Source of the DNA: Candidatus Methylomirabilota bacterium
Lineage (GTDB): Bacteria; Methylomirabilota; Methylomirabilia; Methylomirabilales; CSP1-5
Length of the DNA: 64,000 nt
Assembly (NCBI GenBank): GCA_027293415.1
Contig: JAPUFX010000066.1
Span: 9,779 to 73,778 of the forward strand
Direction of reading: 5' to 3'
A program made the translations under genes and the position numbers. Under the pieces are notes generated by a model. That model was not told the DNA's origin. It saw nothing but the letters and a program-made list of their open reading frames with translations, and did not search any database. Shown here piece by piece: positions 4,180 through 63,158 of the stretch. Position 1 is the first letter of the stretch. Every line of letters starts with the position of its first letter.

Positions 4180-5667
4180 ATGCGAATCTATAACACCCAA
4201 AGCCGACAAAAGGAGCTTTTCAAGCCGCTGACACCCGGGCAGGTCCGCATGTATGTCTGCGGGATTACGGCGTACGACCTCAGCCACATCGGCCATGCCC
4301 GGTCCGCGCTCGTCTTCGATGTGATCCGCCGGTACTTAGAATTCAAGGGGTACGAGGTTAGATTCATCCACAACTTCACGGATGTGGATGACAAAATTAT
4401 CAAAAAGGCGGAACAGAGGGGTGCTTCGGCAGGGGAAATATCCGAAGAGTACATCGCCGAGTACCAGAAGGATATGGAGAGGCTCGGGATCCTTCCCGCC
4501 ACGGTCGAGCCCAAGGCCACGGAGTACATTCCCCAAATGATCGCGCTGATCGAGCGACTTGTTGCCCGGGGCTTCGCCTACATCGTCGACGGCGATGTCT
4601 ATTTTGAGGTCAGGCGGTTCCCTCCGTACGGACGCCTGTCGGGGAAGAACCTTGACGAACTGCTGGCCGGCGCGCGTGTGGAGGTAGACGAGCGCAAGCG
4701 GGATCCGCACGACTTCGCGCTCTGGAAATCGGCAAAACCGGGCGAGCCATCGTGGGAGAGCCCATGGGGTCCAGGACGGCCGGGCTGGCACATCGAATGT
4801 TCGGCCATGTCGATGGAGCACCTCGGCGAGTCCTTTGACATCCATGGCGGCGGCGAAGACCTAATATTCCCGCACCACGATTGCGAGATCGCGCAGTCCG
4901 AGGCCGTGACGGACAAGCCCTTCGTCCGTTACTGGATCCATAATGGGTTCGTCCAGATCAACCAAGAGAAGATGTCCAAGTCCCTCGGTAATTTTTTTAC
5001 GGTCCGCGAGATTTTTGAAAAATCGCCGTATGGGGCTCCCGTCACGGCCGAGGCGCTCCGGTATTTTCTTGTCGGCACCCATTATCGAAGCCCGCTGGAT
5101 TTTTCCGATGACGGCTTGTGGGAGGCCAAACGTGCGCTGGACAGGTTCTACGACCTGTTTGTACGTCTTGACGAGTCGTCCGCAGCGAAAGGACCAGGGG
5201 ATAGGCTGTTACTATCGTTGCTTGAGCAGTTCGGCGGAGCGTTTCGCCAGGCAATGGATGATGACTTCAACACCCCAGCAGCTATTGCACAGCTCCAGGT
5301 TCTGCGCGGCGAGATGAACCGTTTGTTGGAGACCGGATTGTCCAAGGAGGCATGCGAAAGCGCGCGCGAGGAGTTTCGATCATTCGGTCGGGTGCTTGGT
5401 CTACTTCAGTTGTCGTTCCGAGAATGGGAGTTTGGGATCGTGGTCCGACCGCACACGGCTGATGTTGTCGTCGTGGGAGAGGAAGTGGAGCTGAGGCTAA
5501 GTAAGGAGTCTCTGACCGATGAAGAGATCGAGCGGCAGGTTGCCGAACGAAACGAAGCGCGGAGAAGAAAAGATTTCAAGAAGGCGGATGATATTCGGGC
5601 AGAGCTCGCCTCGTTCGGGATTACGATAGAGGATCGGCCAGATGGTACCAGCCGGTGGAAACGATGA
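4180..5667 (+). CDS. cysS: Cysteine--tRNA ligase
   Basis: 495 aa. HIGH-type motif (LSHIGHARS) and KMSKS are present. Confidence 0.95.
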
Positions 5668-6795: not shown

Positions 6796-6909
6796 CCATA
6801 TGAATGATTAAGAGGCAGCCCGAGGTTCTCAGGACGAGAGCACCCAAACGGGAAGGGCCATTTGGAGGCTTGAGAGCGCTGTTTCGTTCGGGGTTATACG
6901 CCTTGGGAT

Positions 6910-6984
6910 GCGGGAATAGCTCAGTGGTAGAGCGCGAGCCTTCCAAGCTCGGGGTCGCGGGTTCGAATCCCGTTTCCCGCTCCA
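6910..6984 (+). tRNA. tRNA-Gly (anticodon UCC)
   Basis: Acceptor stem gcgggaa/ttcccgc, anticodon loop ct-TCC-aa, T-loop GGTTCGAATCC, and CCA. Confidence 0.93.
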
Positions 6985-7058
6985 GCCCGTTTCCATCCCG
7001 GAAAAACGACTCACGGACGGCGGGGGCGCACGGGCCTCACCGAGGCACCTCGAGGAGG

Positions 7059-8318
7059 GTGCGTCCTTGGTGTGTGGTTATCAGCGTCGGGTTCCTCTGC
7101 ACGGGGGTTCCGTTGGCCGCCCAGGCGGTTCCGCTGGCCACTCGGGATGTCGCCACGCATAATCAACGAGGGGTGGAACTCAGTGCCAAGGGGGAGCATC
7201 GCGAGGCGATTGCCGAGTTTGAAAGAGCCTTAAGCCTCGCCCCATCCCATCCGGTGGTCCGGCGGAATCTGGCTCATGCGCACGGAAATCGTGCCGCCCT
7301 GCTGCTTCGGGAGCAGGCCTTCCAGGAGGCGGCGGATCAGTACCAGGCGGCGATTGAGCTGTCACCAAAGGAGCAACGATTTTACGTGGGGCTCGGGGTG
7401 GCTTTTCTCGCCCTCCGGGAGATGCCCCAGGCCGTGGAGGTTTTCAGGCAGGCCCGCGATCTCGACCCACAGAATGTAGAAGTCTATCGGTATCTGGGGG
7501 AGACCTATTACCGACAGGGGGATCCCAAGGAGGCAGTGAGGACCTGGGAAGAAGGGCTGAGAATCCGCCCTGGGGATCAGGAGCTCGAACGGCGTATCGC
7601 CCAAGTCGAAGGGGAACGGCAGGTTCACGAAAGGTACGAGCACCAGACCGGGCACCACTTTGCCCTCCGGTACGTGGGTGAGGTTCCCGAAGAGCTGGGT
7701 GGGGAGATCCTCGAGCTACTGGAACAGGCGTACGACGAGGTGGGGTACGACCTGAACCACTATCCCCAGGACACGGTTGAGGTCATTATCTATTCCGATG
7801 CCGACTTTCAACGGGTCACTCATCTGCCGGGATGGGTTTCTGCGGCATTTGAAGAACGGGGGAGTCGGATCCGCATTCCCATCCGGGGGATCAGGCAGGG
7901 CACAGATCTTCGAGCGCTGTTGTACCATGAATACACCCATGTGGTCATTCGGGACGTTACGGGTGGGAAGGTCCCCACCTGGTTGAATGAGGGATTGGCC
8001 CTGATAGAGCAGCGGACTCCTTTGGATGGCGCGGTCGGGACGGTCCGGCAACTGGCGGACGAGAAGAAACTCCCCTCGTTGGGTGCCCTGAATGGCTCCT
8101 TTGTGAAACTCACAGGGCCGGAGGCGAGTGTTGCCTACGCCGTCAGTTATACGGCCGCCAAATTTCTCATCGAGCGGTGGAGCCGCTGGGACGCGCAGCG
8201 ACTCCTTCGACAGCTCGGCGAGGGGTTGCCCTTTGAAGAAGCGCTGGAGGAGACCACTCGACTGACGCTACCGGAGTTCGAGCAAGAATGGCGCGAATGG
8301 CTCGTTAGGGGATATTGA
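7059..8318 (+). CDS. Secreted TPR-repeat protein with C-terminal MA-clan zinc-peptidase-like domain
   Basis: Signal-like segment WCVVISVGFLCTGVPLAAQA, TPR-like repeats, then HEYTH (HExxH) followed by NEGLA. The track ORF start 6804 runs through tRNA-Gly, so the start was moved to in-frame GTG 7059 (alternative 7074). The start is uncertain. Confidence 0.7.
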   Translation: MRPWCVVISVGFLCTGVPLAAQAVPLATRDVATHNQRGVELSAKGEHREAIAEFERALSLAPSHPVVRRNLAHAHGNRAALLLREQAFQEAADQYQAAIELSPKEQRFYVGLGVAFLALREMPQAVEVFRQARDLDPQNVEVYRYLGETYYRQGDPKEAVRTWEEGLRIRPGDQELERRIAQVEGERQVHERYEHQTGHHFALRYVGEVPEELGGEILELLEQAYDEVGYDLNHYPQDTVEVIIYSDADFQRVTHLPGWVSAAFEERGSRIRIPIRGIRQGTDLRALLYHEYTHVVIRDVTGGKVPTWLNEGLALIEQRTPLDGAVGTVRQLADEKKLPSLGALNGSFVKLTGPEASVAYAVSYTAAKFLIERWSRWDAQRLLRQLGEGLPFEEALEETTRLTLPEFEQEWREWLVRGY

Positions 8319-9722: not shown

Positions 9723-9732
9723 CAACCAGGGG

Positions 9733-9801
9733 TCTGCAGCCAGTAGCCAGCTTGGGGATCCAAAAGCTGACTGCCGAAAGCTGATGGCGGACAGCTGCCA
9801 G
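9733..9801. repeat. Heptad inverted repeat, class B (GCTGAYR words)
   Basis: Left arm ctgcagccagtagccagctt, right arm aagctgactgccgaaagctgatggcggacagctgccag. The inner helix is CAGCTT/AAGCTG. Confidence 0.6.
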
Positions 9802-9811
9802 TGAGAAGAAC

Positions 9812-9961
9812 ATGCGAGAGATCATCGCCTTAGGCTGCACGGATTGCAAGCGTCGCAACTATTCGACGACGAAAAATAAGAAAAATACACCGGACCGGCT
9901 GGAGCGGAAGAAATATTGTCGGTGGTGTCGGAAGCACACCACCCACAAAGAAGTCAGGTAG
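9812..9961 (+). CDS. rpmG: 50S ribosomal protein L33 (zinc-ribbon form)
   Basis: Hand-translated 49 aa: [49 protein letters not shown]. Below the ORF-track size cutoff. Confidence 0.9.
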
Positions 9962-10212: not shown

Positions 10213-10290
10213 GTTCAGGGTTGAGAGTTCAGCGTTCAGAGCTTGGGAGCTTCGGTTCTGCTCTGAACCATGAACCGTGAACTGTGAACC
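10213..10290. repeat. Heptad inverted repeat, class A (GTTCAGR words)
   Basis: Left arm GTTCAGG GTTGAGA GTTCAGC GTTCAGA GC. Right arm GC TCTGAAC CATGAAC CGTGAAC TGTGAAC. The inner 9 bp pair perfectly. Confidence 0.8.
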
Positions 10291-10500: not shown

Positions 10501-11055
10501 ATGAGTGTGCATACGTTAGAACAGAAAGAACAACGGTGGTACGTGGTTCACACCTACTCGGGGTTCGAGAGCAAGGTCAAGTCGAGCATCGAGCAGAGGG
10601 CGACTACCCTGGGCCTCCGAGAAAAAATCTCGGAAATCCTGATCCCCACCGAGGATGTGGTTGAACTCAAGAAGGGGAAGAAGCGAATCGCGTCCCGCAA
10701 GTTCTTTCCCGGTTACGTCCTTATCCGGATGGAGATGTCAGATGATTTGTGGTACCTGGTCCGCAGCACCCCAAAGGTGACCGGGTTTGTCGGACCCGGG
10801 ACCCGGCCCATCCCCATCCCCGAGGAGGAAGTTGCTCACATCCGCCAGCAGGTGGAGGAAGGCGCGGAGAAGCCCAAGCATAAGGTCCAGTTTGTACGGG
10901 GCGAGGCGGTCCGGGTCATTGATGGTCCCTTTACCAACTTCACCGGCATCGTTGACGAGATTAGACCCGAGAAGGGACGGCTCAAAGTTATGGTAAGCAT
11001 CTTTGGTCGACCCACGCCGGTGGATTTAGAGTTTTTGCAAGTGGAGAAAGTATAA
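10501..11055 (+). CDS. nusG: Transcription termination/antitermination factor NusG
   Basis: WYVVHTYSGFESKV NGN domain and a KOW C-terminus. ATG 10501 comes directly after the secE stop. The track start 10465 overlaps secE. Confidence 0.93.
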   Translation: MSVHTLEQKEQRWYVVHTYSGFESKVKSSIEQRATTLGLREKISEILIPTEDVVELKKGKKRIASRKFFPGYVLIRMEMSDDLWYLVRSTPKVTGFVGPGTRPIPIPEEEVAHIRQQVEEGAEKPKHKVQFVRGEAVRVIDGPFTNFTGIVDEIRPEKGRLKVMVSIFGRPTPVDLEFLQVEKV

Positions 11056-11062
11056 AGAAAAG

Positions 11063-11138
11063 CAGTCAGCAATCAGCCGTCAGCGACCAGCAAGATCAAG
11101 AGGAAATTCAGTGCTGACAGCGGACTGCTGATGGCTGG
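11063..11138. repeat. Heptad inverted repeat, class B
   Basis: Left arm CAGTCAGCAATCAGCCGTCAGCGACCAGC. Right arm GTGCTGACAGCGGACTGCTGATGGCTGG. Confidence 0.75.
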
Positions 11139-11150
11139 AGCAGGGCGACA

Positions 11151-11579: not shown

Positions 11580-11744
11580 CAGCTATCAGCTGTCCACTGT
11601 CCGCAGAGAACAGCTGGAAGGCCAGGAGGCTGGGACGCTAGAACACGAGAACGGGTGGATGCCGAATTCCTTGTTTGGGTTCGTGCTTTCCAGCTTACGA
11701 GCGTTCTAGCATCCCAGCAGTTTATTACGGACTACTGATAGCTG
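11580..11744. repeat. Nested long-range inverted repeat with class B words in the rplK-rplA spacer
   Basis: Outer pair cagctatcag (11580-11589) with ctgatagctg (11735-11744). Inner pair gctgggacgctagaac (11629-11644) with gttctagcatcccagc (11703-11718), 15 of 16 complementary. Confidence 0.7.
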
Positions 11745-11766
11745 GCAGCTTTGCTGGAGGAAAGGG

Positions 11767-12477
11767 GTGGCGCAGCACTCGAAGCGATTTGCCAAGGCGG
11801 TGACGACGGTGGCGGAACGGGCGCCGCAGCCCGTCGACCTCAAGACAGCCATCTCTGTGCTCAAAGCGGTGGACTCGGCCAAGTTCAACGAGACCATGGA
11901 GGTAGCGGTGCGTCTCGGCGTGGACCCGCGGAAGGCCGATCAGATGATCCGGGGGACGGTAGTCCTTCCGCACGGGACCGGCAAATCAGTCCGGGTTCTG
12001 GTCTTTGCCAAGGGAGAAAAGGAAAAAGAGGCGCAGGAGGCAGGGGCCGACCTCGTGGGTTGCGAGGATCTGATGGAGAGGATTCAGCAGGGGTGGTTGG
12101 AATTTGACCGGGCCATTGCCACGCCTGATGTCATGGGCCAAGTGGGGAAGTTGGGAAAGATCCTGGGTCCCCGGGGGCTCATGCCCAACCCCAAAACAGG
12201 GACGGTCACCTTTGATGTCGGCCGAGCGGTCAAGGAGTTTAAGGCGGGCAAAATCGAGTACCGGGTGGATAAGGCCGGCATTATCCATGCCCCTTTTGGG
12301 AAGGTCTCTTTCTCGGAGGATCAACTGACGGAGAACGCCGCCGTCCTCCTCGAGGCCCTGGTCCGGGCAAAGCCCCCGACGAGCAAGGGGAAGTTCCTCA
12401 AAGCAATTTCCATCTCTTCGACGATGGGGCCGTCGGTTCAGGTCGACGTAGGCACCATTTCCGGGGGAGCCAAGTAG
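11767..12477 (+). CDS. rplA: 50S ribosomal protein L1
   Basis: 236 aa. GTG start after GGAGGAAAGGG. Typical L1 sequence. Confidence 0.96.
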
Positions 12478-17577: not shown

Positions 17578-17604
17578 ACGGGGGGCTTTAAGTGGGGTCG
17601 CACA

Positions 17605-17654
17605 GGATCAGGTCAGGGCTCGGCTGCTCCTGCTCGGTTCCCGACGCCTGATCC
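17605..17654. repeat. Inverted repeat (GGATCAGG/CCTGATCC) in the rpoB-rpoC spacer, heptad-like variant
   Basis: An 8-bp perfect stem (17605-17612 with 17647-17654) flanks the gctcgg ctgctcc tgctcgg direct repeats. Confidence 0.5.
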
Positions 17655-17689
17655 GTAAGTGCTACGCACGATAAAGGGAGGAGAAGCGA

Positions 17690-22234: not shown

Positions 22235-22240
22235 TCGGAT

Positions 22241-22292
22241 GCGGCACTGAGAGGCTCCTCTCCTCGACCCCTCGGTGCCGCTTTTCGTTTTT
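22241..22292 (+). terminator. Terminator-like hairpin plus T-tract between rpsL and rpsG (possible attenuator or S7 operator)
   Basis: gcggcactgagagg (22241-22254) pairs with cccctcggtgccgc (22268-22281), 12 of 14 complementary. It is followed by ttttcgttttt. Confidence 0.45.
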
Positions 22293-22322
22293 GGCGGCAA
22301 TTGGTGAATTGAAGGTGAGTGA

Positions 22323-22793
<471 letters not shown>

Positions 22794-22862
22794 AAAGGCC
22801 CCCATCCCGTCTGAGCATTGGGAGAGGGGCCTTCGATGTGTAAGCAGAGGGAGTGAGACAGG

Positions 22863-24941: not shown

Positions 24942-24989
24942 ACGCCCCCTTTTTCTCAGATGGCGACCACAGTAATTTCCATTGCGATT

Positions 24990-25033
24990 TCAGCAGCCCA
25001 GCCCATGAAGTTGACTGCTTGTAGCTGACGGCG
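24990..25033. repeat. Degenerate class B-like word run in the fusA-rpsJ spacer
   Basis: tcagcagcccagc ... gactgcttgtagctgacggcg. Only weak arm complementarity. Confidence 0.3.
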
Positions 25034-25052
25034 GAGGACGGAGAGCCCAGGG

Positions 25053-25361
25053 ATGGAAGCGGAACGGATTCGGATACGGCTGAAGGCTTACGACCACCGG
25101 ATTTTGGATCAGTCCGCGAAGGAGATCGTAAGCACGGCCGAGCGAACAGGGGCAGGGGTTTCGGGACCTATTCCCCTTCCGACGAAGATCAGCCGGTACA
25201 CGGTCCTCCGCTCCCCGCACGTGGATAAGAAGTCGCGGGAACAGTTTGAGATCCGCATTCATGTCCGCCTTTTGGATATCCTGCGGCCCACGCCTCAGAC
25301 GGTGGATGCCCTCATGCGGTTGGACTTGCCGGCGGGGGTTGATGTTGAAATCAAACTCTAG
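25053..25361 (+). CDS. rpsJ: 30S ribosomal protein S10
   Basis: 102 aa. [14 protein letters not shown]. Confidence 0.97.
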
Positions 25362-25362
25362 T

Positions 25363-25452
25363 GTCCACAGTCCAAAGTCCAAGGTCGAAAAAGAGCAAAA
25401 CACCTGGTGACTTTGGACGTTGGACATTGGGCATCAGACAGACGTTGGACAT
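25363..25452. repeat. Heptad inverted repeat, class C (GTCCAAN words)
   Basis: Left arm GTCCACA GTCCAAA GTCCAAG GTC. Right arm GACTTTG GACGTTG GACATTG, plus an extra GACGTTGGACAT at 25441-25452. Confidence 0.8.
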
Positions 25453-25458
25453 TTCGTC

Positions 25459-26148
25459 ATGCAGATGGGTATTGGATTGCTCGGTAGGAAAGTAGGGATG
25501 ACCCAGATCTTTGATCAAGGGGGACGGGCCGTTCCCGTCACCGTGGTGGAGGCCGGCCCCTGTACCGTCGTCCAAAAGAAGGGTCTGGAAAAGGATGGCT
25601 ACGAGGCGGTCCAGCTCGGCTACCTTCCGGAAAAGCCAAAGCGCGTCCGCAAACCGATGAGCGGTCACTTCGGTAAAGGCAAGGTACCCCCCTTGCGGCA
25701 TCTTCAGGAGATGCGACTTCATTCGGCAGCCGAGTATCAGGTGGGCCAGACCCTGACGGTCGGCCTCTTTGCAGAAGGGGAAGAGGTCGTGGTGACCGGG
25801 ACGTCGAAGGGGCGGGGTTTCCAGGGCGGCGTGAAACGCTGGGGCTACCGGGGTGGCGCGAAGAGTCACGGATCCATGTTCCACAGGGCGGTGGGGTCGA
25901 TCGGTGCTTCTTCCTATCCCTCGCGAGTGTTTAAGGGCCACCATATGCCCGGGCGCATGGGGGGAGAGCGGGTGACGATCCGGGGACTCCATGTGGTCCG
26001 GCGGGATTCTGATCGAAACCTCCTGCTAATTCGTGGAGCGCTCCCCGGACCTCAGGGCGGTCTACTTACTGTTCGCAAGACGGGCAAGGCGGCCCTTGGC
26101 AGCGAACCGACGACGCCCCCGGAGAGAACTGCCGGGTCGAAAGCATAA
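25459..26148 (+). CDS. rplC: 50S ribosomal protein L3
   Basis: GLLGRKVGMTQIF N-terminus. Start is ATG 25459 or 25465. The track start 25420 lies in the repeat. C-terminal extension of about 20 aa. Confidence 0.93.
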   Translation: MQMGIGLLGRKVGMTQIFDQGGRAVPVTVVEAGPCTVVQKKGLEKDGYEAVQLGYLPEKPKRVRKPMSGHFGKGKVPPLRHLQEMRLHSAAEYQVGQTLTVGLFAEGEEVVVTGTSKGRGFQGGVKRWGYRGGAKSHGSMFHRAVGSIGASSYPSRVFKGHHMPGRMGGERVTIRGLHVVRRDSDRNLLLIRGALPGPQGGLLTVRKTGKAALGSEPTTPPERTAGSKA

Positions 26149-27102: not shown

Positions 27103-27186
27103 CAACTGGCAATCTGCTGTCTGCTATCTAGCTCTTCTCAAGGAAATGTTGACTGCTGATGGCTGACAGCTGGCAGCTGAAGAGCG
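27103..27186. repeat. Heptad inverted repeat, class B
   Basis: Left arm GCAACTG GCAATCT GCTGTCT GCTATCT AGC. Right arm GCTGATG GCTGACA GCTGGCA GCTGAAG AGC. Starts directly after the rplW stop. Confidence 0.75.
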
Positions 27187-32023: not shown

Positions 32024-32030
32024 CTTGCCA

Positions 32031-32117
32031 GTTCAGAGTTCATGGTTCACAGTTCAGGGTCGGGTGAGCACGATGACCTTGTACAAGTCCCTGAATCATG
32101 CACCGTAAACCCTGAAC
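32031..32117. repeat. Heptad inverted repeat, class A
   Basis: Left arm GTTCAGA GTTCATG GTTCACA GTTCAGG GTC. Right arm CCTGAAT CATGCAC CGTAAAC CCTGAAC. Confidence 0.8.
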
Positions 32118-32128
32118 GGAGTAGCTCA

Positions 32129-32524: not shown

Positions 32525-32528
32525 CGAC

Positions 32529-32597
32529 AGTCCGACGTCCACAGTCCAAGGTCCAACGTCGGTAATGGGAAAGGTCCTGTGACTTTGGACTTCGGAC
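32529..32597. repeat. Heptad inverted repeat, class C
   Basis: Left arm AGTCCGAC GTCCACA GTCCAAG GTCCAAC GTC. Right arm GGTCCTGT GACTTTG GACTTCG GAC. Confidence 0.8.
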
Positions 32598-37308: not shown

Positions 37309-37602
37309 ATGCGCAAGAGGTCCGCTGGACAGCGCAGAAAGAGGTCCGCTGGACAGCGCAAAAAGAAGTCCGCTGGACAAACCCAAAAGAAGGAAGAGGC
37401 GATCGAGGTCGAAGGGACCGTGGTCGAGCCCTTGCCGAACGCCATGTTTCGGGTGGAGTTCGAGACGGGCCACAAAGTGCTGGCCCACATATCGGGGAAG
37501 ATGCGGATGCATTTTATCCGGATCCTCCCGGGGGATAAAGTTATTGTGGAGCTCAGTCCCTACGATCTGAGCCGAGGTCGCATCATTTATCGCCATAAGT
37601 AG
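37309..37602 (+). CDS. infA: Translation initiation factor IF-1 with a repeat-encoded basic N-terminal extension
   Basis: ATG 37309 after AGGAGGT. The conserved core is [68 protein letters not shown]. It is preceded by [28 protein letters not shown]. No in-frame start lies closer to the core. Confidence 0.9.
37315..37386 (+). repeat. 24-bp tandem repeat x3 inside the infA 5' coding region
   Basis: Copy 1: aagaggtccgctggacagcgcaga. Copy 2: aagaggtccgctggacagcgcaaa. Copy 3: aagaagtccgctggacaaacccaa. Confidence 0.9.
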
Positions 37603-37604
37603 TT

Positions 37605-37677
37605 GTCGGCTGTCAGCAGTCCGCAGTCAGCTTTGACCCGCGATAGTAATTGCTGACAGCTGATGGTTGACAGCAGG
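37605..37677. repeat. Heptad inverted repeat, class B
   Basis: Left arm GTCGGCT GTCAGCA GTCCGCA GTCAGCT. Right arm GCTGACA GCTGATG GTTGACA GCAGG, running into the rpmJ SD AGGAGG. Confidence 0.8.
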
Positions 37678-37685
37678 AGGCTGAA

Positions 37686-37799
37686 GTGAAGGTGCGGGCG
37701 TCGGTAAAACGAATCTGTGAGAAGTGCAAGGTAATCAAGCGGAAAGGGGTTGTCCGGATCGTCTGCGAAAACCCTCGACACAAACAGCGACAGGGCTAG
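37686..37799 (+). CDS. rpmJ: 50S ribosomal protein L36 (zinc form)
   Basis: Hand-translated 37 aa: [40 protein letters not shown] start after AGGAGG. Below the ORF-track cutoff. Confidence 0.92.
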
Positions 37800-37863
37800 C
37801 GCAGACAGAAGACCGATGACCGTCGTAACCGGGTCGTCGATCAACGGATGACGAGGAGGACAA

Positions 37864-38235
37864 ATGGCGCGAATCGCAGGCGTGGATCTTCCGCGCGAGA
37901 AACGGCTGGAGGTGGCTCTCACTTACATCTTTGGGATCGGTCGCTCGTCTTCTCGCAGGATCCTGAGTGAGGCCAATGTCAGCACTGATGTGCGCGTGAA
38001 GAACTTGACCGAAGATGAGGTGAATCGCATTCGGCGGGTGATCGAGGAACAGTTTAAGGTCGAGGGAGACCTCCGTCGAGATGTGGGCATGAACATCAAG
38101 CGACTTATGGACATCGGCAGCTACCGGGGTCTCAGACATCGACGGGGGCTTCCGGTCCGGGGCCAGCGGACTCATACGAATGCCCGGACCCGGAAAGGCC
38201 CTCGCCGCACGGTAGGTGCCCGGCGGAAGAGGTAG
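37864..38235 (+). CDS. rpsM: 30S ribosomal protein S13
   Basis: 123 aa. [14 protein letters not shown]. Confidence 0.97.
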
Positions 38236-40820: not shown

Positions 40821-40857
40821 AGCCCTGGAACAACTACGGTTTCAGGGCTTTTCTTTT
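40821..40857 (+). terminator. Rho-independent terminator after rplQ
   Basis: Stem agccctg / cagggct with a 14-nt loop, followed by TTTTCTTTT. Confidence 0.7.
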
Positions 40858-40869
40858 GCCCGGCCTGTG

Positions 40870-41334
40870 CTACTCCTCCTCTATTGTGCCAGTGTACTCG
40901 ATGGCGATCCCCCGCCGTACGCTCTGCGAGGCAGGACACCCCTTCTCATGGATTTCGATCGCCCGCTCAGCGTCCGAACGTTTTCCCTGAGGAACCTTCA
41001 CGTGATAGCGCACGCTGATCTTGGTGATCAGCGGGTGCCCATCGACGTTTTCAATAGAGCCCTCGACCTCTGACCAGAGTTTATCCGGGTGCGTCGGAAT
41101 CTTCCGCGCCGCTAGCGCCACGGCTAGCGTGCCCGTCATTCAGCCCGCCACAGCAGAAATCACGTGATCGAGCGTGGTCGGCAAATCCTCTTCCGGCTCC
41201 ACCCCGTAAAATTTCTTGATCCCGCCGTGGATCCCGTAGTGCACCGGCTCCGTGAATGACTCGATGTAGGCTCGCCGGACCGGCCCTTTGTCTTTGAAGA
41301 TCTTGGTCTTCGAGGTGTGGATCAGTTCTCCCAT
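40870..41334 (-). CDS. OsmC/YhfA-family protein with an in-frame TGA at the conserved Cys position (candidate selenoprotein; track ORFs 41140..41334 and 40870..41139 joined)
   Basis: The two adjacent same-frame minus ORFs read ...DHVISAVAG-TGA-MTGTLAVALAARK... . The second family Cys is present in HEKGCPASQS. A strong SD AGGAGG precedes ATG 41334. The joined length of 154 codons fits the family. Confidence 0.6.
41108..41132 (-). promoter_or_regulatory. SECIS-like mRNA hairpin downstream of the in-frame UGA
   Basis: The mRNA reads UGA AUG ACG GGC A CGCUAGC CGUGGC GCUAGCG GC. A 7-bp perfect stem plus 2 extra pairs starts about 11 nt after the UGA, with G and U in the 6-nt apical loop. Confidence 0.45.
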
Positions 41335-41561
41335 GGTCTCCTCCTGTCTTCAGCGGGGGTCAAACGATCTGCGGGGTGCTTTGCTGGTGGATTTCTACCA
41401 CCGTGTTGGGCGTGGACAAGGTACCAGGCAGGAGTCACCCGCGTCAAGGCAAACATGGTTTTAATTTTTCCCTTTACACCACGACAGGCTGTGTGCTACC
41501 TAGAAGCCCGGGGATTTCCTGCCTGCATCATCAGGTGATGCTGATCATGGGGGGGGATTCC

Positions 41562-43649
41562 ATGAAGGCTTACGAAATCACGCAGATCCGGAATGTGGGG
41601 ATCGTTGCCCATGGACAGGAGGGAAAGACCTCCTTGACGGAGGCAATCCTCTTTGACACCGGGGCGCTGACCCGCCTTGGACGAGTAGAAGAAGGGAATA
41701 CCGCGACCGACTTTGACGAGGGTGAGATCAAGCGGGGGATCAGTATCAGCTCGGCCGTCGCCTTCTGTGAGTGGAAGGGGGTCAAGGTGAATCTCATCGA
41801 TACCCCCGGCTTCTCCAACTTTCTTCCCGACACCCGGATGTGCCTGCGCGTGGCGGATATCGCCCTCATCCTGGTCAGTGCGGTGGACGGGATCAAGGTC
41901 CAGACAGAAAAGGTCTGGGGATATGCGGAGGAGTATGGCCTGCCGGGTGTCTTCTTTGCGAACAAAATGGATCGGGAACGGGCGGATCTTTTTCGTACGG
42001 TCGAGGATATTCGAAAAGGCTTGCATCCCGCAGCCATCCCCTTGCAAATCCCCATAGGGGCCGAGGCTGGCTTCCGCGGGGTGGTGGATCTGTTGGCGAT
42101 GAAGGCGTACACCTTCCAGACCGACGGATCGGGAAAGTTCAAGGAGGAGGAGATACCGGCCGAGCTCAAGGACCGGGCGGGAGAGCTCCAGCATACGCTC
42201 GTTGAGGCGGTGGCGGAGTCGGAAGATAGCTTGCTTGAGCGCTATCTCGAGAGTGGCACGCTGAGCCCCGAAGAGCTGCGGACCGGCATCCGACGGGCTA
42301 TCGCCGCCAGGAAACTCTTCCCCGTCCTTTGCGGGTCGGCGTTAAAGAACATCGGCATCCAGCCTCTACTCGATGTCTTAATCGATATCTGCCCCTCTCC
42401 CTTGGATCGGCCGCTGGTGGAGGGAAAAGACACGAAGTCAAAGGAACGGGTTTCACGGGAGGCGCGGCCAGATGCACCGCTCACGGCGTTGATCTTTAAG
42501 ACCATTGGGGATCCTTACGCCGGCAAGATCAGCGTTTTCCGGGTGTATGCCGGCCGACTGAGTACCGATAGTAGTGTGTATAACGCCGTCAAAGAGACGA
42601 GAGAGCGGATCGGACAGGTATCGCTCCTTCGGGGAAAGCACCAGGTCCCCGTCGACGAAGTGGGCCCGGGAGACATCGGAGCTGTGGTAAAGCTGAAGGA
42701 GACTAGTACAGGGGATACGCTTGCCGACGAAAAATCTTCCATCCTGCTCGACCCCCTCCCTGTGCCCACACCCCTGATTTCTTACGCCATCGCTCCCAAG
42801 TCCAAAGGAGATGAGGAAAAACTGTCTGGGGCCTTAAGCCGCCTCCTGGAAGAGGACCCTAGCCTTAAGGTGAGCCGGGACCAGCAGACCAAGGAGACCA
42901 TTATCTCCGGAATGGGGAAGGTCCACTTGGAGGTGGCGGTGGAACGACTCAAGCGGAGGTTCGGCGTAGACGTCGCCATGAAGACCCCTCGTGTACCGTA
43001 CAAGGAGACGATCCGGGGGACCGCCTCCGTGCAGGGGAAATACAAAAAACAAACGGGGGGCCGTGGACAATACGGCGACTGCTGGATCAAGCTCGAGCCC
43101 ATGCCGCGGGGTGAGAAATACGAATTTGCCAATCAGATCGTCGGCGGGGTGATCCCCAGACAATACATCCCGGCCGTGGAGAAGGGGGTCGTGGAGGCGA
43201 TGGAACGAGGGGTCTTGGCCGGCTATCCCGTGACCGGCGTCAAGGTGAGCCTCTATGATGGATCGTTCCATTCAGTGGACTCTTCGGAGATGGCCTTTAA
43301 GATCGCCGGCTCCATGGCCTTGAAGAAGGGGGTTCAACAGGCCACCCCCATCCTTCTCGAACCGATTATGGCGGTCGAGGTGAGCGCCCCCGACGATGCG
43401 ATCGGGGATGTGATCGGCGATCTCAATTCTCGGCGGGGGCGGGTCATGGGGGTAGAGGGCAGGAGCAAGGGCCAGGTCATCAAGACGCTCGTCCCTCTCG
43501 CGGAAATGCTGGAGTATGCCCCCCAGCTGCGTTCCCTGACCGCAGATCGGGGAGACTACACCATGGAGTTTTCGCATTACGAGGAAGTTCCGGCCCACAT
43601 CCAGGAAAAGCTGGTGGCCGAGGCCAAGCAGGAAGAAAAAGGGGCCTAA
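41562..43649 (+). CDS. Elongation factor G paralog (EF-G2-like translational GTPase)
   Basis: ATG 41562. 695 aa with G motifs AHGQEGKTS, DTPGF and NKMD, and EF-G domains II-V. Clearly diverged from the str-operon fusA. The track start 41376 is a spurious extension. Confidence 0.85.
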   Translation: MKAYEITQIRNVGIVAHGQEGKTSLTEAILFDTGALTRLGRVEEGNTATDFDEGEIKRGISISSAVAFCEWKGVKVNLIDTPGFSNFLPDTRMCLRVADIALILVSAVDGIKVQTEKVWGYAEEYGLPGVFFANKMDRERADLFRTVEDIRKGLHPAAIPLQIPIGAEAGFRGVVDLLAMKAYTFQTDGSGKFKEEEIPAELKDRAGELQHTLVEAVAESEDSLLERYLESGTLSPEELRTGIRRAIAARKLFPVLCGSALKNIGIQPLLDVLIDICPSPLDRPLVEGKDTKSKERVSREARPDAPLTALIFKTIGDPYAGKISVFRVYAGRLSTDSSVYNAVKETRERIGQVSLLRGKHQVPVDEVGPGDIGAVVKLKETSTGDTLADEKSSILLDPLPVPTPLISYAIAPKSKGDEEKLSGALSRLLEEDPSLKVSRDQQTKETIISGMGKVHLEVAVERLKRRFGVDVAMKTPRVPYKETIRGTASVQGKYKKQTGGRGQYGDCWIKLEPMPRGEKYEFANQIVGGVIPRQYIPAVEKGVVEAMERGVLAGYPVTGVKVSLYDGSFHSVDSSEMAFKIAGSMALKKGVQQATPILLEPIMAVEVSAPDDAIGDVIGDLNSRRGRVMGVEGRSKGQVIKTLVPLAEMLEYAPQLRSLTADRGDYTMEFSHYEEVPAHIQEKLVAEAKQEEKGA

Positions 43650-44217: not shown

Positions 44218-44280
44218 GTCTAAGGTCCAACGTCCAAGGTCCAACGGTACGGCACCATGTAACATAGACGTTGGACCTTT
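44218..44280. repeat. Heptad inverted repeat, class C
   Basis: Left arm GTCTAAG GTCCAAC GTCCAAG GTCCAAC GGT. Right arm GACGTTGGACCTTT. Confidence 0.78.
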
Positions 44281-58390: not shown

Positions 58391-58513
58391 GGGGCGGTTC
58401 GGGAAAGGCCTCCTCATCGTCCTCTCCTCCCTCCGAGGTCGGCCTTCCCCTCACCGCTGACGCGGTACTAGCAGCGGTCCACTTGAGGCATTGGAGTAAT
58501 TGGAGTAATTTGG

Positions 58514-58536
58514 TGACAGCTGATCGCTGACAGCTC
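58514..58536. repeat. Class B word run (single arm) before purS
   Basis: tgacagc tgatcgc tgacagc tc, immediately upstream of the purS SD GGGAG. The 9-nt tandem ttggagtaa x2 at 58491-58508 lies next to it. Confidence 0.5.
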
Positions 58537-58546
58537 GGGAGACTGA

Positions 58547-63044: not shown

Positions 63045-63047
63045 TAA

Positions 63048-63158
63048 GTTCACGGTTCAGAGTTCAGAGTTGAGAGTGCAGAGTGCAGAGTTCAGGGAAA
63101 GGATAACACCTTTTTTTTGCTGTTTCAGCGCTGAACCCTGAACCATGAACCCTGAACG
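63048..63158. repeat. Heptad inverted repeat, class A (largest copy)
   Basis: Left arm GTTCACG GTTCAGA GTTCAGA GTTGAGA GTGCAGA GTGCAGA GTTCAGG. The centre contains a T8 run. Right arm GCTGAAC CCTGAAC CATGAAC CCTGAAC. Confidence 0.85.

Follow-up and report, generated by a model that had tools for sequence, protein, structure and literature searches.

Does a hairpin whose arm runs up to a Shine-Dalgarno (SD) sequence control the gene behind it, or does it merely have nowhere else to end? The question is raised by the spacer between infA and rpmJ in a 64,000-nt stretch of contig JAPUFX010000066.1 from a Candidatus Methylomirabilota (NC10) bacterium, hereafter the window, which carries, all on the + strand, rpoBC, the str, S10, spc and alpha operons, nusA-infB, pnp and pur genes. 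The closest match of its methionine aminopeptidase is the enzyme of NC10 bacterium CSP1-5, at 81% identity, followed by those of other Methylomirabilota. In this spacer, as at other junctions, an array of 7-nt units faces a complementary array. An initial annotation proposed that the right arms end at or inside the next SD and that the stem, or a shift in its register, could occlude or expose the ribosome-binding site (RBS), thereby setting translation ratios within polycistronic mRNAs. All the strings that it quoted, from infA-rpmJ and from the rplA, rplK, purS, rpsH and nusA junctions, are in the sequence as written. We found that the proximity to the SD is real but is explained by the geometry of the spacers.

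The infA-rpmJ element, whose parts are given in Table 1, is predicted to fold into a stem of ~23–28 bp (−36 to −38 kcal/mol; z-score −1.9 relative to shuffled sequences, which is modest) ending at position 37674, immediately 5′ of the SD. Moreover, the SD of rpmJ stands in the 7-nt phase of the right arm, which continues as the units GCAGGAG, carrying the SD, and GCTGAA, followed by the GTG start codon. By our count, the window contains thirteen arrays of the heptamer type, and their three main cores are GTCAG, GTTCA and GTCCA. Using Tandem Repeats Finder (TRF) and lag analysis to detect period 7, we observed arrays of 2.9–7 copies at 12 intergenic sites by TRF, and only two 2-copy chance matches outside spacers. 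The predicted stems contain 20–37 pairs with small internal loops. No loop is common to any two copies, and loops, unit order and length differ across all 13.

Geometry and folding were examined in 33 element-bearing spacers annotated by homology, 13 of them from the window and 20 from NC10 relatives (L001–L003). The right arms do end at the SD, with a median of 3 nt between the last paired base and the first SD base. The same median of 3 nt separates the upstream stop codon from the start of the main helix, and no asymmetry was found between the stop-side and the SD-side gap (Wilcoxon p = 0.42). The hairpin and the SD-to-start segment together account for 93% of the spacer, and the median of 16 nt that remains once the hairpin is subtracted is an ordinary spacer length: element-free versions of these junctions mostly measure 10–35 nt, most ribosomal-protein junctions have a median spacer of ~10–30 nt across 81 genomes, and the infA-rpmJ spacer measures 1 to ~60 nt in most of 73 genomes. 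As the element is in effect the spacer, its right end can only be next to the SD. The tightness on both sides, the 93% fill and the shortness of element-free spacers thus indicate that the SD adjacency is a boundary effect and not targeting. Within the 33 spacers, the distances to the SD were indistinguishable from random placement, an outcome that the initial annotation had itself named as counting against its proposal.

The idea that the arms end inside the SD does not hold as a rule. Lag-7 periodicity, already at 0.56 over the 14 nt that follow the stop codon, stands at 0.63 between −28 and −15 and then drops to 0.325 in the 14 nt preceding the start codon, which is near background (~0.25 for other lags; 0.27 for controls). 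The arrays stop a median of 13 nt short of the start codon. An SD is normally found there, with a median anti-SD duplex of −6.8 kcal/mol. The exception is rpsJ-rplC (window 25405–25465), which has no recognisable SD (best anti-SD duplex −3.0 kcal/mol) and ~7 right units for 4 left ones.

Access to the RBS was assessed by thermodynamic prediction of folding, with opening costs in kcal/mol and a footprint from the SD to +15. Occlusion of the SD by the stem is not what these folds predict: pairing of the SD with the spacer's 5′ half has a median probability of 0.01, with a value of 0.15 for infA-rpmJ and of at least 0.4 in 6 of the 33 spacers. In folds of the spacer by itself, a median of 1.7 kcal/mol is needed to open the SD together with the start codon, and 0.0 for the infA-rpmJ element. 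Over the SD to +15 footprint, RBSs preceded by an element cost 6.2 kcal/mol versus 8.5 kcal/mol for the other RBSs of the window (p = 0.003). Shuffling the left half of the spacer increased the cost by 2.7 kcal/mol compared to the native sequence (29 of 33 cases, p = 1e-6), and its deletion also raised the predicted cost; in control genes the same shuffling had no effect (−0.15, p = 0.18). Since right-arm units that lack a partner pair with the RBS and the left arm removes them, the stem is predicted to expose the RBS. The claim that the stem affects RBS access is thus retained as a predicted effect, in the direction opposite to occlusion. Strand asymmetry, taken as a sign of selection at the RNA level, gave no signal, as the sense strand was more stable by 1.9 kcal/mol and coding controls by 2.5 kcal/mol. 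Overall, the folds suggest that any influence of the stem on translation would be passive insulation and not a switch.

Several public assemblies hold contigs nearly identical to the window (97–99.5% DNA identity), and these, including L201, L202, L203 and L204, were used for a comparison between strains. Exactly one 7-nt unit distinguishes strains at rpsH-rplF, nusG-rplK and rplK-rplA, and a difference of +7 nt was also observed at rpsN-rpsH. For example, L201 and L202 have one extra ATTGGAC unit in the rpsH-rplF right arm, and the rpsN-rpsH right arm of L201 is homogenised into five CCTGAAC units. The rpmJ-rpsM spacer of L201 (L201 10115–10227) has grown from 64 to 113 nt by four added GTTCA units with almost no complementary partner. 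In two independent assemblies, L201 and L204, the infA-rpmJ spacer is swapped from the base after the stop codon up to rpmJ codon 2, with nearly unchanged coding flanks. The replacement is an unrelated 75-nt hairpin of the GTCCA type, in which the SD has become an AGGAC unit and the GTG start codon ATG; the predicted opening cost rises from 2.9 to 7.5–10.2 kcal/mol, whereas single-unit indels shift it by 0–2 kcal/mol. Two right-arm substitutions in L202 and L203 raise the cost of the same spacer from 2.9 to 4.6 kcal/mol.

Among the NC10 relatives, orthologous junctions of L001 and L002 have the same core at infA-rpmJ, rpsN-rpsH and rplW-rplB and a different one at rpsH-rplF and rimP-nusA. The element is absent from rplB-rpsS in the window and from rimP-nusA in L002. 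Thus, the elements grow, shrink and are replaced on a strain-level timescale, within bounds set by the stop codon and by the SD and start codon. Given that this variation changes the opening cost, the SD and the start codon, it is unlikely that the element is calibrated to set the stoichiometry of an essential ribosomal protein. A role in setting translation ratios finds no support in elements that are gained, lost, resized and replaced between strains this similar; they behave as a hypermutable repeat and not as a calibrated regulator of ribosomal-protein stoichiometry.

The explanation that we favour, with slightly better than even confidence, is that these are hypervariable hairpins made of heptamer simple sequence repeats (SSRs), which fill intercistronic gaps and touch the SD as a boundary effect, without targeting it. 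Each element consists of an array of 7-nt units and then an array of complementary units, together taking up essentially the whole untranslated gap. Indels of 7 nt would arise by replication slippage, to which the single-unit differences point, and whole-spacer swaps by recombination or template switching. Among the flanking positions, selection would fix only the stop codon and the segment from SD to start codon, and contact with the SD would then follow as a boundary effect. In the polycistronic mRNA, the two arrays would pair into an imperfect stem-loop of 20–35 bp, the base of which would return the stop codon and the next RBS to about the distance found in an element-free spacer, while the stem would sequester right-arm units otherwise able to pair with the RBS. 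The hairpin form may be what makes such an insert tolerable in essential operons.

With regard to known repeats, the elements belong to the heptamer-SSR and paired-array kind, and we found no description of them in the literature for NC10/Methylomirabilota. Heptamers are over-represented and the most abundant class of long SSRs (LSSRs) in bacteria, for which slippage was put forward as the explanation (Mrazek 2007, summarised in PMC4679880 and PMC4692102). Two properties that define LSSRs were found here: head-to-tail repetition of 1–11-nt units above chance (lag-7 values of 0.56–0.63 versus ~0.2 for other lags) and unit-number polymorphism between close strains (+7 nt at four junctions). LSSRs and the heptamers among cyanobacterial short tandemly repeated repetitive (STRR) sequences are also intergenic tandem 7-nt units, sporadic across genomes, with variation in unit number attributed to polymerase slippage. 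The NC10 arrays differ from both in forming foldable inverted pairs and in filling essential-operon gaps exactly from stop codon to SD.

The closest architecture is that of the paired tandem hepta- and octanucleotide arrays (classes 1–3) of Geobacter metallireducens, which were interpreted as binding sites of global regulators (Aklujkar 2009, PMC2700814). In these sites, two arrays of 3–5 tandem 7–9-nt units lie on opposite strands across a variable gap, as is also the case in NC10; some lie inside operons (proB-proA), and they are genome-specific, G. sulfurreducens being devoid of them (PMC2700814). The class 3 unit MTYCTGA has CTGA in common with the NC10 right arms. The unit consensus is not shared, as MTYCTGA does not occur in tandem in the window, where the cores read GTCAG, GTTCA and GTCCA; the other two Geobacter consensus units, GTTGCTYN and TCTCCGTS, were not searched for. 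The Geobacter sites further differ in being read as DNA-binding sites, and neither a relation to stop codon or SD nor turnover between strains was described for them.

Marine Beggiatoaceae, cyanobacteria and Bacteroidetes have direct repeats of TAACTGA, for which a translational role was proposed (MacGregor 2015, PMC4679880). They resemble the NC10 arrays in being heptamer arrays a few nt ahead of start codons, also at junctions within ribosomal-protein operons. However, a single unit is repeated directly, only one of 170 cases being inverted, and the repeats usually stand in place of a canonical RBS (PMC4679880), whereas the NC10 arrays have three or more cores, inverted pairs and normally an SD. 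Their placement, a few nt from a start codon and usually without canonical RBS, does not match NC10 arrays ending 13 nt (median) upstream with an SD present, and TAACTGA occurs in the window as three isolated sites on both strands, none in tandem. The 5′ untranslated region of Haemophilus influenzae hmw1A contains (ATCTTTC)n as a hairpin arm that is cut by RNase III, and expression depends on repeat number (PMC12721329). This is the only experimentally dissected heptamer-SSR hairpin that we found, and it shares with the NC10 elements a transcribed heptamer SSR that makes up one arm of a long hairpin ahead of a start codon; for the NC10 elements, the hairpin is a predicted fold and transcription is suggested by operon position. 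In hmw1A, the other arm is a G-rich non-repeat and the single locus encodes a phase-variable surface protein; cleavage and the effect of repeat number on expression were demonstrated there, while the NC10 elements are known from sequence.

Xanthomonas and Nostoc carry GGGAATC and GGGGAYT heptamer repeats that are intergenic and vary between close relatives (Rehm 2015, PMC4692102). Extensive variation of length and sequence at the same junction and occasional inverted pairs recall the NC10 elements; the G-rich, quadruplex-prone, mostly direct arrays do not, and no packing from stop codon to SD is described for them (PMC4692102). Repetitive extragenic palindromic (REP) sequences, bacterial interspersed mosaic elements (BIMEs) and REP doublets forming hairpins (REPINs) are also extragenic imperfect palindromes that lie in operons and fold in mRNA, where they are known to stabilise upstream segments. 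REPs are, however, fixed 20–40-nt sequences with a conserved GTAG or CGTC head, mobilised by REP-associated tyrosine transposases (RAYTs), whereas the NC10 elements lack a fixed sequence and are internally periodic at 7 nt. Assignment to REP/BIME/REPIN was rejected, as the 13 copies all differ instead of repeating one palindrome and have no GTAG or CGTC head, the left arms starting, for example, with TTGTCGG, GTTCAGG, CAGTCAG or GTCCACA. An RBS-sequestering operator was rejected as well, the SD rarely being in the stem (median pairing probability 0.01), the left arm lowering the predicted opening cost, and the structure being unconserved, that is, replaced, resized or absent in relatives. As for intrinsic terminators or attenuators, none of 6 heptamer hairpins was called in the scanned 24.6–44.5 kb, where the rplQ terminator (40821–40849), the one clear intrinsic terminator with an ordinary GC stem and U-tract, was called. 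Rfam gave only five tRNAs at gathering threshold over the 64 kb, and in the infA-rpmJ spacer only a chance-level mir-30 match (19 vs 50 bits).

Across the ribosomal-protein operons of the 81 genomes, a strict detector was positive for hairpins of this kind in 47 of 467 long spacers, versus 0.15 expected from shuffled sequences. The positives cluster in few genomes, from Methylomirabilota, Acidobacteriota, Nitrospirota, Desulfobacterota-like metagenome-assembled genomes and others, and the unit sequences differ by lineage. The junctions concerned include infA-rpmJ (9), rpmJ-rpsM (6), rpsN-rpsH (4) and rpsH-rplF (4). In metagenomes, a scan for at least four GTTCA units gave matches in many unrelated organisms, mostly long direct arrays and in a minority inverted pairs; it shows the spread of the unit and is unfit as a census of hairpin elements. 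Long GGTTCAG arrays mixed with TTTAGGG/TTGGGG-like units at the ends of metagenome contigs L081, L103, L113, L179 and L194 look like repeats of the eukaryotic telomere type and not like bacterial spacers. The acidobacterial contig L059 has heptamer hairpins at the junctions 2524–2586, 5468–5551, 11042–11122 and 12134–12214. Its infA-rpmJ, rpsH-rplF and rpsK-rpsD copies have in common CAGTT-type arms and a conserved centre (CAGTTCAAAG...GGCACTGAG...CTTTGAACTG), and so form a genuine family of dispersed repeats, which the NC10 copies do not.

A CTGA/TCAG core was seen in heptamers of unrelated lineages, namely NC10 (GCTGAC, CTGAAC), Acidobacteriota (AACTGA), Geobacter (MTYCTGA) and Beggiatoa (TAACTGA), and at a 7-nt period it puts TGA in all three frames. 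The idea that right arms serve as three-frame stops was discarded, as it is true for only 7 of the 13 elements, the GTCCA type being without such codons. A broader and rather unlikely possibility is that inverted heptamer arrays are a general route by which hypermutable SSRs enter essential operons in several phyla. Only arrays that gain a complementary partner would persist, the folded insert restoring the short stop-to-RBS distance, keeping the RBS open and acting as a built-in insulator; formation and resizing may need transcription and RNase III, as for hmw.

Several points weigh against the gap-filling SSR hairpins that we favour. Slippage leaves unexplained why a complementary array stands beside almost every array, for which we infer a survival filter on self-pairing inserts, and whole-spacer replacement has no mechanistic explanation. 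All four unit indels lie in the right, SD-proximal arm; the sample is small, but this is unlike pure neutrality. The recurrence of elements at infA-rpmJ in 9 genomes of several phyla, together with the retention of some hairpin there after replacement, could reflect positive selection for structure. It should be noted that the predicted insulation comes from the folding of naked RNA between the stop codon and +15, which ignores ribosomes, RNases and co-transcriptional folding, and that sampling was confined to operon-rich regions, as opposed to convergent or divergent spacers.

If the stem or its 7-nt registers masked and unmasked the SD, the elements would set the translation ratio of neighbouring cistrons or make it vary, perhaps like a phase-variable dial turned by gain or loss of units. 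This agrees with the 6 of 33 spacers in which the SD is predicted to be drawn into a stem extension (0.76 for infA-rpmJ of L001 and rplN-rplX of L002, 0.50 for rpsN-rpsH of the window), with SD units in array phase (GCTGGAG at rplK and at rplB and rpmJ of L001; GCAGGAG at infA-rpmJ of the window), with the right-arm location of the four indels and with the cost increase due to the L202/L203 substitutions. Precedents are hmw1A, whose expression scales with a heptamer SSR in a hairpin arm (PMC12721329), and the TAACTGA repeats just upstream of starts (PMC4679880). We nevertheless regard masking as fairly improbable, given the negligible median pairing of the SD with the left half and its low value at infA-rpmJ, the small effect of unit indels on opening cost, a left arm that lowers this cost instead of raising it, the symmetry of the geometry about the spacer, and close relatives with equal stoichiometric needs in which the same junction is element-free. 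Alternatively, the stems may be selected as RNase III substrates or barriers to 3′ exonucleases that divide operon transcripts into segments of unequal stability, analogous to T7 intercistronic sites and REP/BIME stabilisers. Their length and small internal loops, their strictly intra-operon, not terminator-like position, the hmw precedent linking a heptamer-SSR hairpin with RNase III and change of repeat number, and the hairpin kept at infA-rpmJ even after replacement all point this way. Yet the sense strand is no more stable than the antisense beyond the compositional bias of coding controls, arms are often unequal (rpsJ-rplC) or one is missing (purS, rpmJ-rpsM of L002 and L201), and presence differs between relatives, which leaves selected processing hairpins with little probability.

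That small mobile elements akin to miniature inverted-repeat transposable elements (MITEs), REPs or REPINs were copied by a transposase into spacers, surviving only where they missed the SD, appears distinctly improbable to us. Related genomes do carry different cores at the same junction, whole spacers can be swapped, and the four L059 junctions combine a conserved central core with heptamer arms. However, window copies have only 5-nt cores in common, neither a conserved terminal tetranucleotide nor a target duplication can be seen, the single-unit indels suggest slippage, and no transposase was noticed in the 64 kb, the open reading frames (ORFs) of which were not scanned for one. Finally, the arrays could bind proteins, either as DNA sites for IHF/HU-type or unknown global regulators, as suggested for the G. 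metallireducens paired sites, or as RNA sites for S1, Csp or CsrA-type proteins, as suggested for the TAACTGA repeats. This is in line with the architecture of the G. metallireducens sites, including the proB-proA pair (PMC2700814), and with the CTGA/TCAG core of NC10, Acidobacteriota, Geobacter and Beggiatoa. At least three unrelated cores in the window, interchangeable at one junction, and a 7-bp period that does not fit the helical repeat of DNA make this highly improbable.

Table 1. Positions and composition of the infA-rpmJ element and of the other heptamer arrays in the window
Feature	Position	Strand	Description
infA-rpmJ spacer	37603–37685	+	four GTCAG-type heptamers facing three complementary GCTGAC-type heptamers
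infA-rpmJ left arm	37603–37631	+	TTGTCGG CTGTCAG CAGTCCG CAGTCAG C; starts 1 nt past infA stop codon (TAG, 37600–37602)
infA-rpmJ loop	37632–37651	+	TTTGACCCGCGATAGTAATT; common to no other copy
infA-rpmJ right arm	37652–37674	+	GCTGACA GCTGATG GTTGACA (37652–37672), then GC
rpmJ RBS	37675–37688	+	SD AGGAGG 37675–37680, 5-nt gap, GTG start 37686
tuf-rpmG spacer	9723–9800	+	imperfect GTCAG/GCTGAC-type inverted arrays; 7-nt phase continues to ATG at 9812
tRNA-Trp to secE	10213–10289	+	GTTCAG x4 vs CTGAAC-type x4; SD GGAGGG begins 4 nt past arm
nusG-rplK	11063–11140	+	CAGTCAG-type x4 vs GCTGACA GCGGACT GCTGATG GCTGGAG; last unit holds SD GGAG
rplK-rplA	11580–11755	+	heptamer arms ~11580–11606 and 11727–11755 around separate inner stem-loop; SD GGAGG 11756–11760
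fusA-rpsJ	24988–25052	+	weak left arm; right-type GTTGACT GCTTGTA GCTGACG GCGGAGG ACGGAGA through two SD-like units to rpsJ ATG
rpsJ-rplC	25361–25451	+	GTCCA-type arms overlapping rpsJ stop codon; right array longer than left, ends 7 nt before ATG
rplW-rplB	27103–27180	+	degenerate left arm vs GTTGACT GCTGATG GCTGACA GCTGGCA
rpsN-rpsH	32030–32117	+	GTTCA x4 vs degenerate CTGAAC-type units; SD GGAG 32118–32121 adjoins arm
rpsH-rplF	32527–32597	+	GTCCA-type arms
rpmJ-rpsM	37800–37863	+	smaller hairpin of GACCG/CGGTC-type heptamers; ends at SD GAGGAGG
rimP-nusA	44218–44279	+	GTCCAA x3 vs GACGTTGGACC; SD GAGAGGGAG 5 nt on
purC-purS	58512–58539	+	orphan right-type array GGTGACA GCTGATC GCTGACA GCTCGGG, no left partner; SD GGGAG overlaps array end
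hom-thrC	63047–63157	+	GTTCAG-type x7 vs CTGAAC x4; longest window copy

Other features were observed near these arrays. At the 5′ end of infA (window 37315–37392), a 24-nt tandem repeat of ~3 copies codes for RKRSAGQR repeats that precede the canonical N-terminus of IF1; its unit includes the GTCC...GGAC motif found in the spacer elements, the repeat is missing from L002 and L003, and the infA start differs among gene callers (97 vs 66 aa). The rpmJ-rpsM region (37800–37896) gives a weak, sub-threshold match to the Rfam family Alpha_RBS, the S4-binding site, at the expected position (15.7 vs 38 bits, E = 0.2). Just upstream of the orphan array of purC-purS, 2.3 copies of a perfect 9-nt repeat, ATTGGAGTA, occupy 58490–58510. 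Ordinary hairpins without heptamer repeats lie in the rpoB-rpoC, rpsL-rpsG and rpsG-fusA spacers (window 17600–17660, 22240–22300 and 22795–22833, respectively), the one in rpsL-rpsG being followed by a T-run. Two short genes, one of the OsmC family, lie on the − strand 3′ of the rplQ terminator (40870–41334), and a second gene for an EF-G-like GTPase (41376–43649) adjoins rimP-nusA. The longest ORF call of a TPR/peptidase_MA gene (6804–8318) overlaps tRNA-Gly (6910–6984), so that its true start must be farther downstream; relatives are called at 414–464 aa.

If the boundary reading is true, an element that fills its spacer will always seem to target the RBS, and the stop-codon side should be checked before regulation is inferred. 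The turnover of spacers between strains in essential operons is a more interesting result than the proximity to the SD: in the most conserved operons, spacers can be fully rebuilt between 97%-identical strains, with SD and start codon swapped along. This turnover serves as a natural test of the range of RBS variation that ribosomal-protein operons can bear, and the elements offer a way to study why heptamers are the favoured long repeat unit in bacteria, a question that dates from 2007. Moreover, if colonisation across several phyla proves true, the intercistronic spacers of ribosomal-protein operons would be the fastest-evolving sequence in these genomes.

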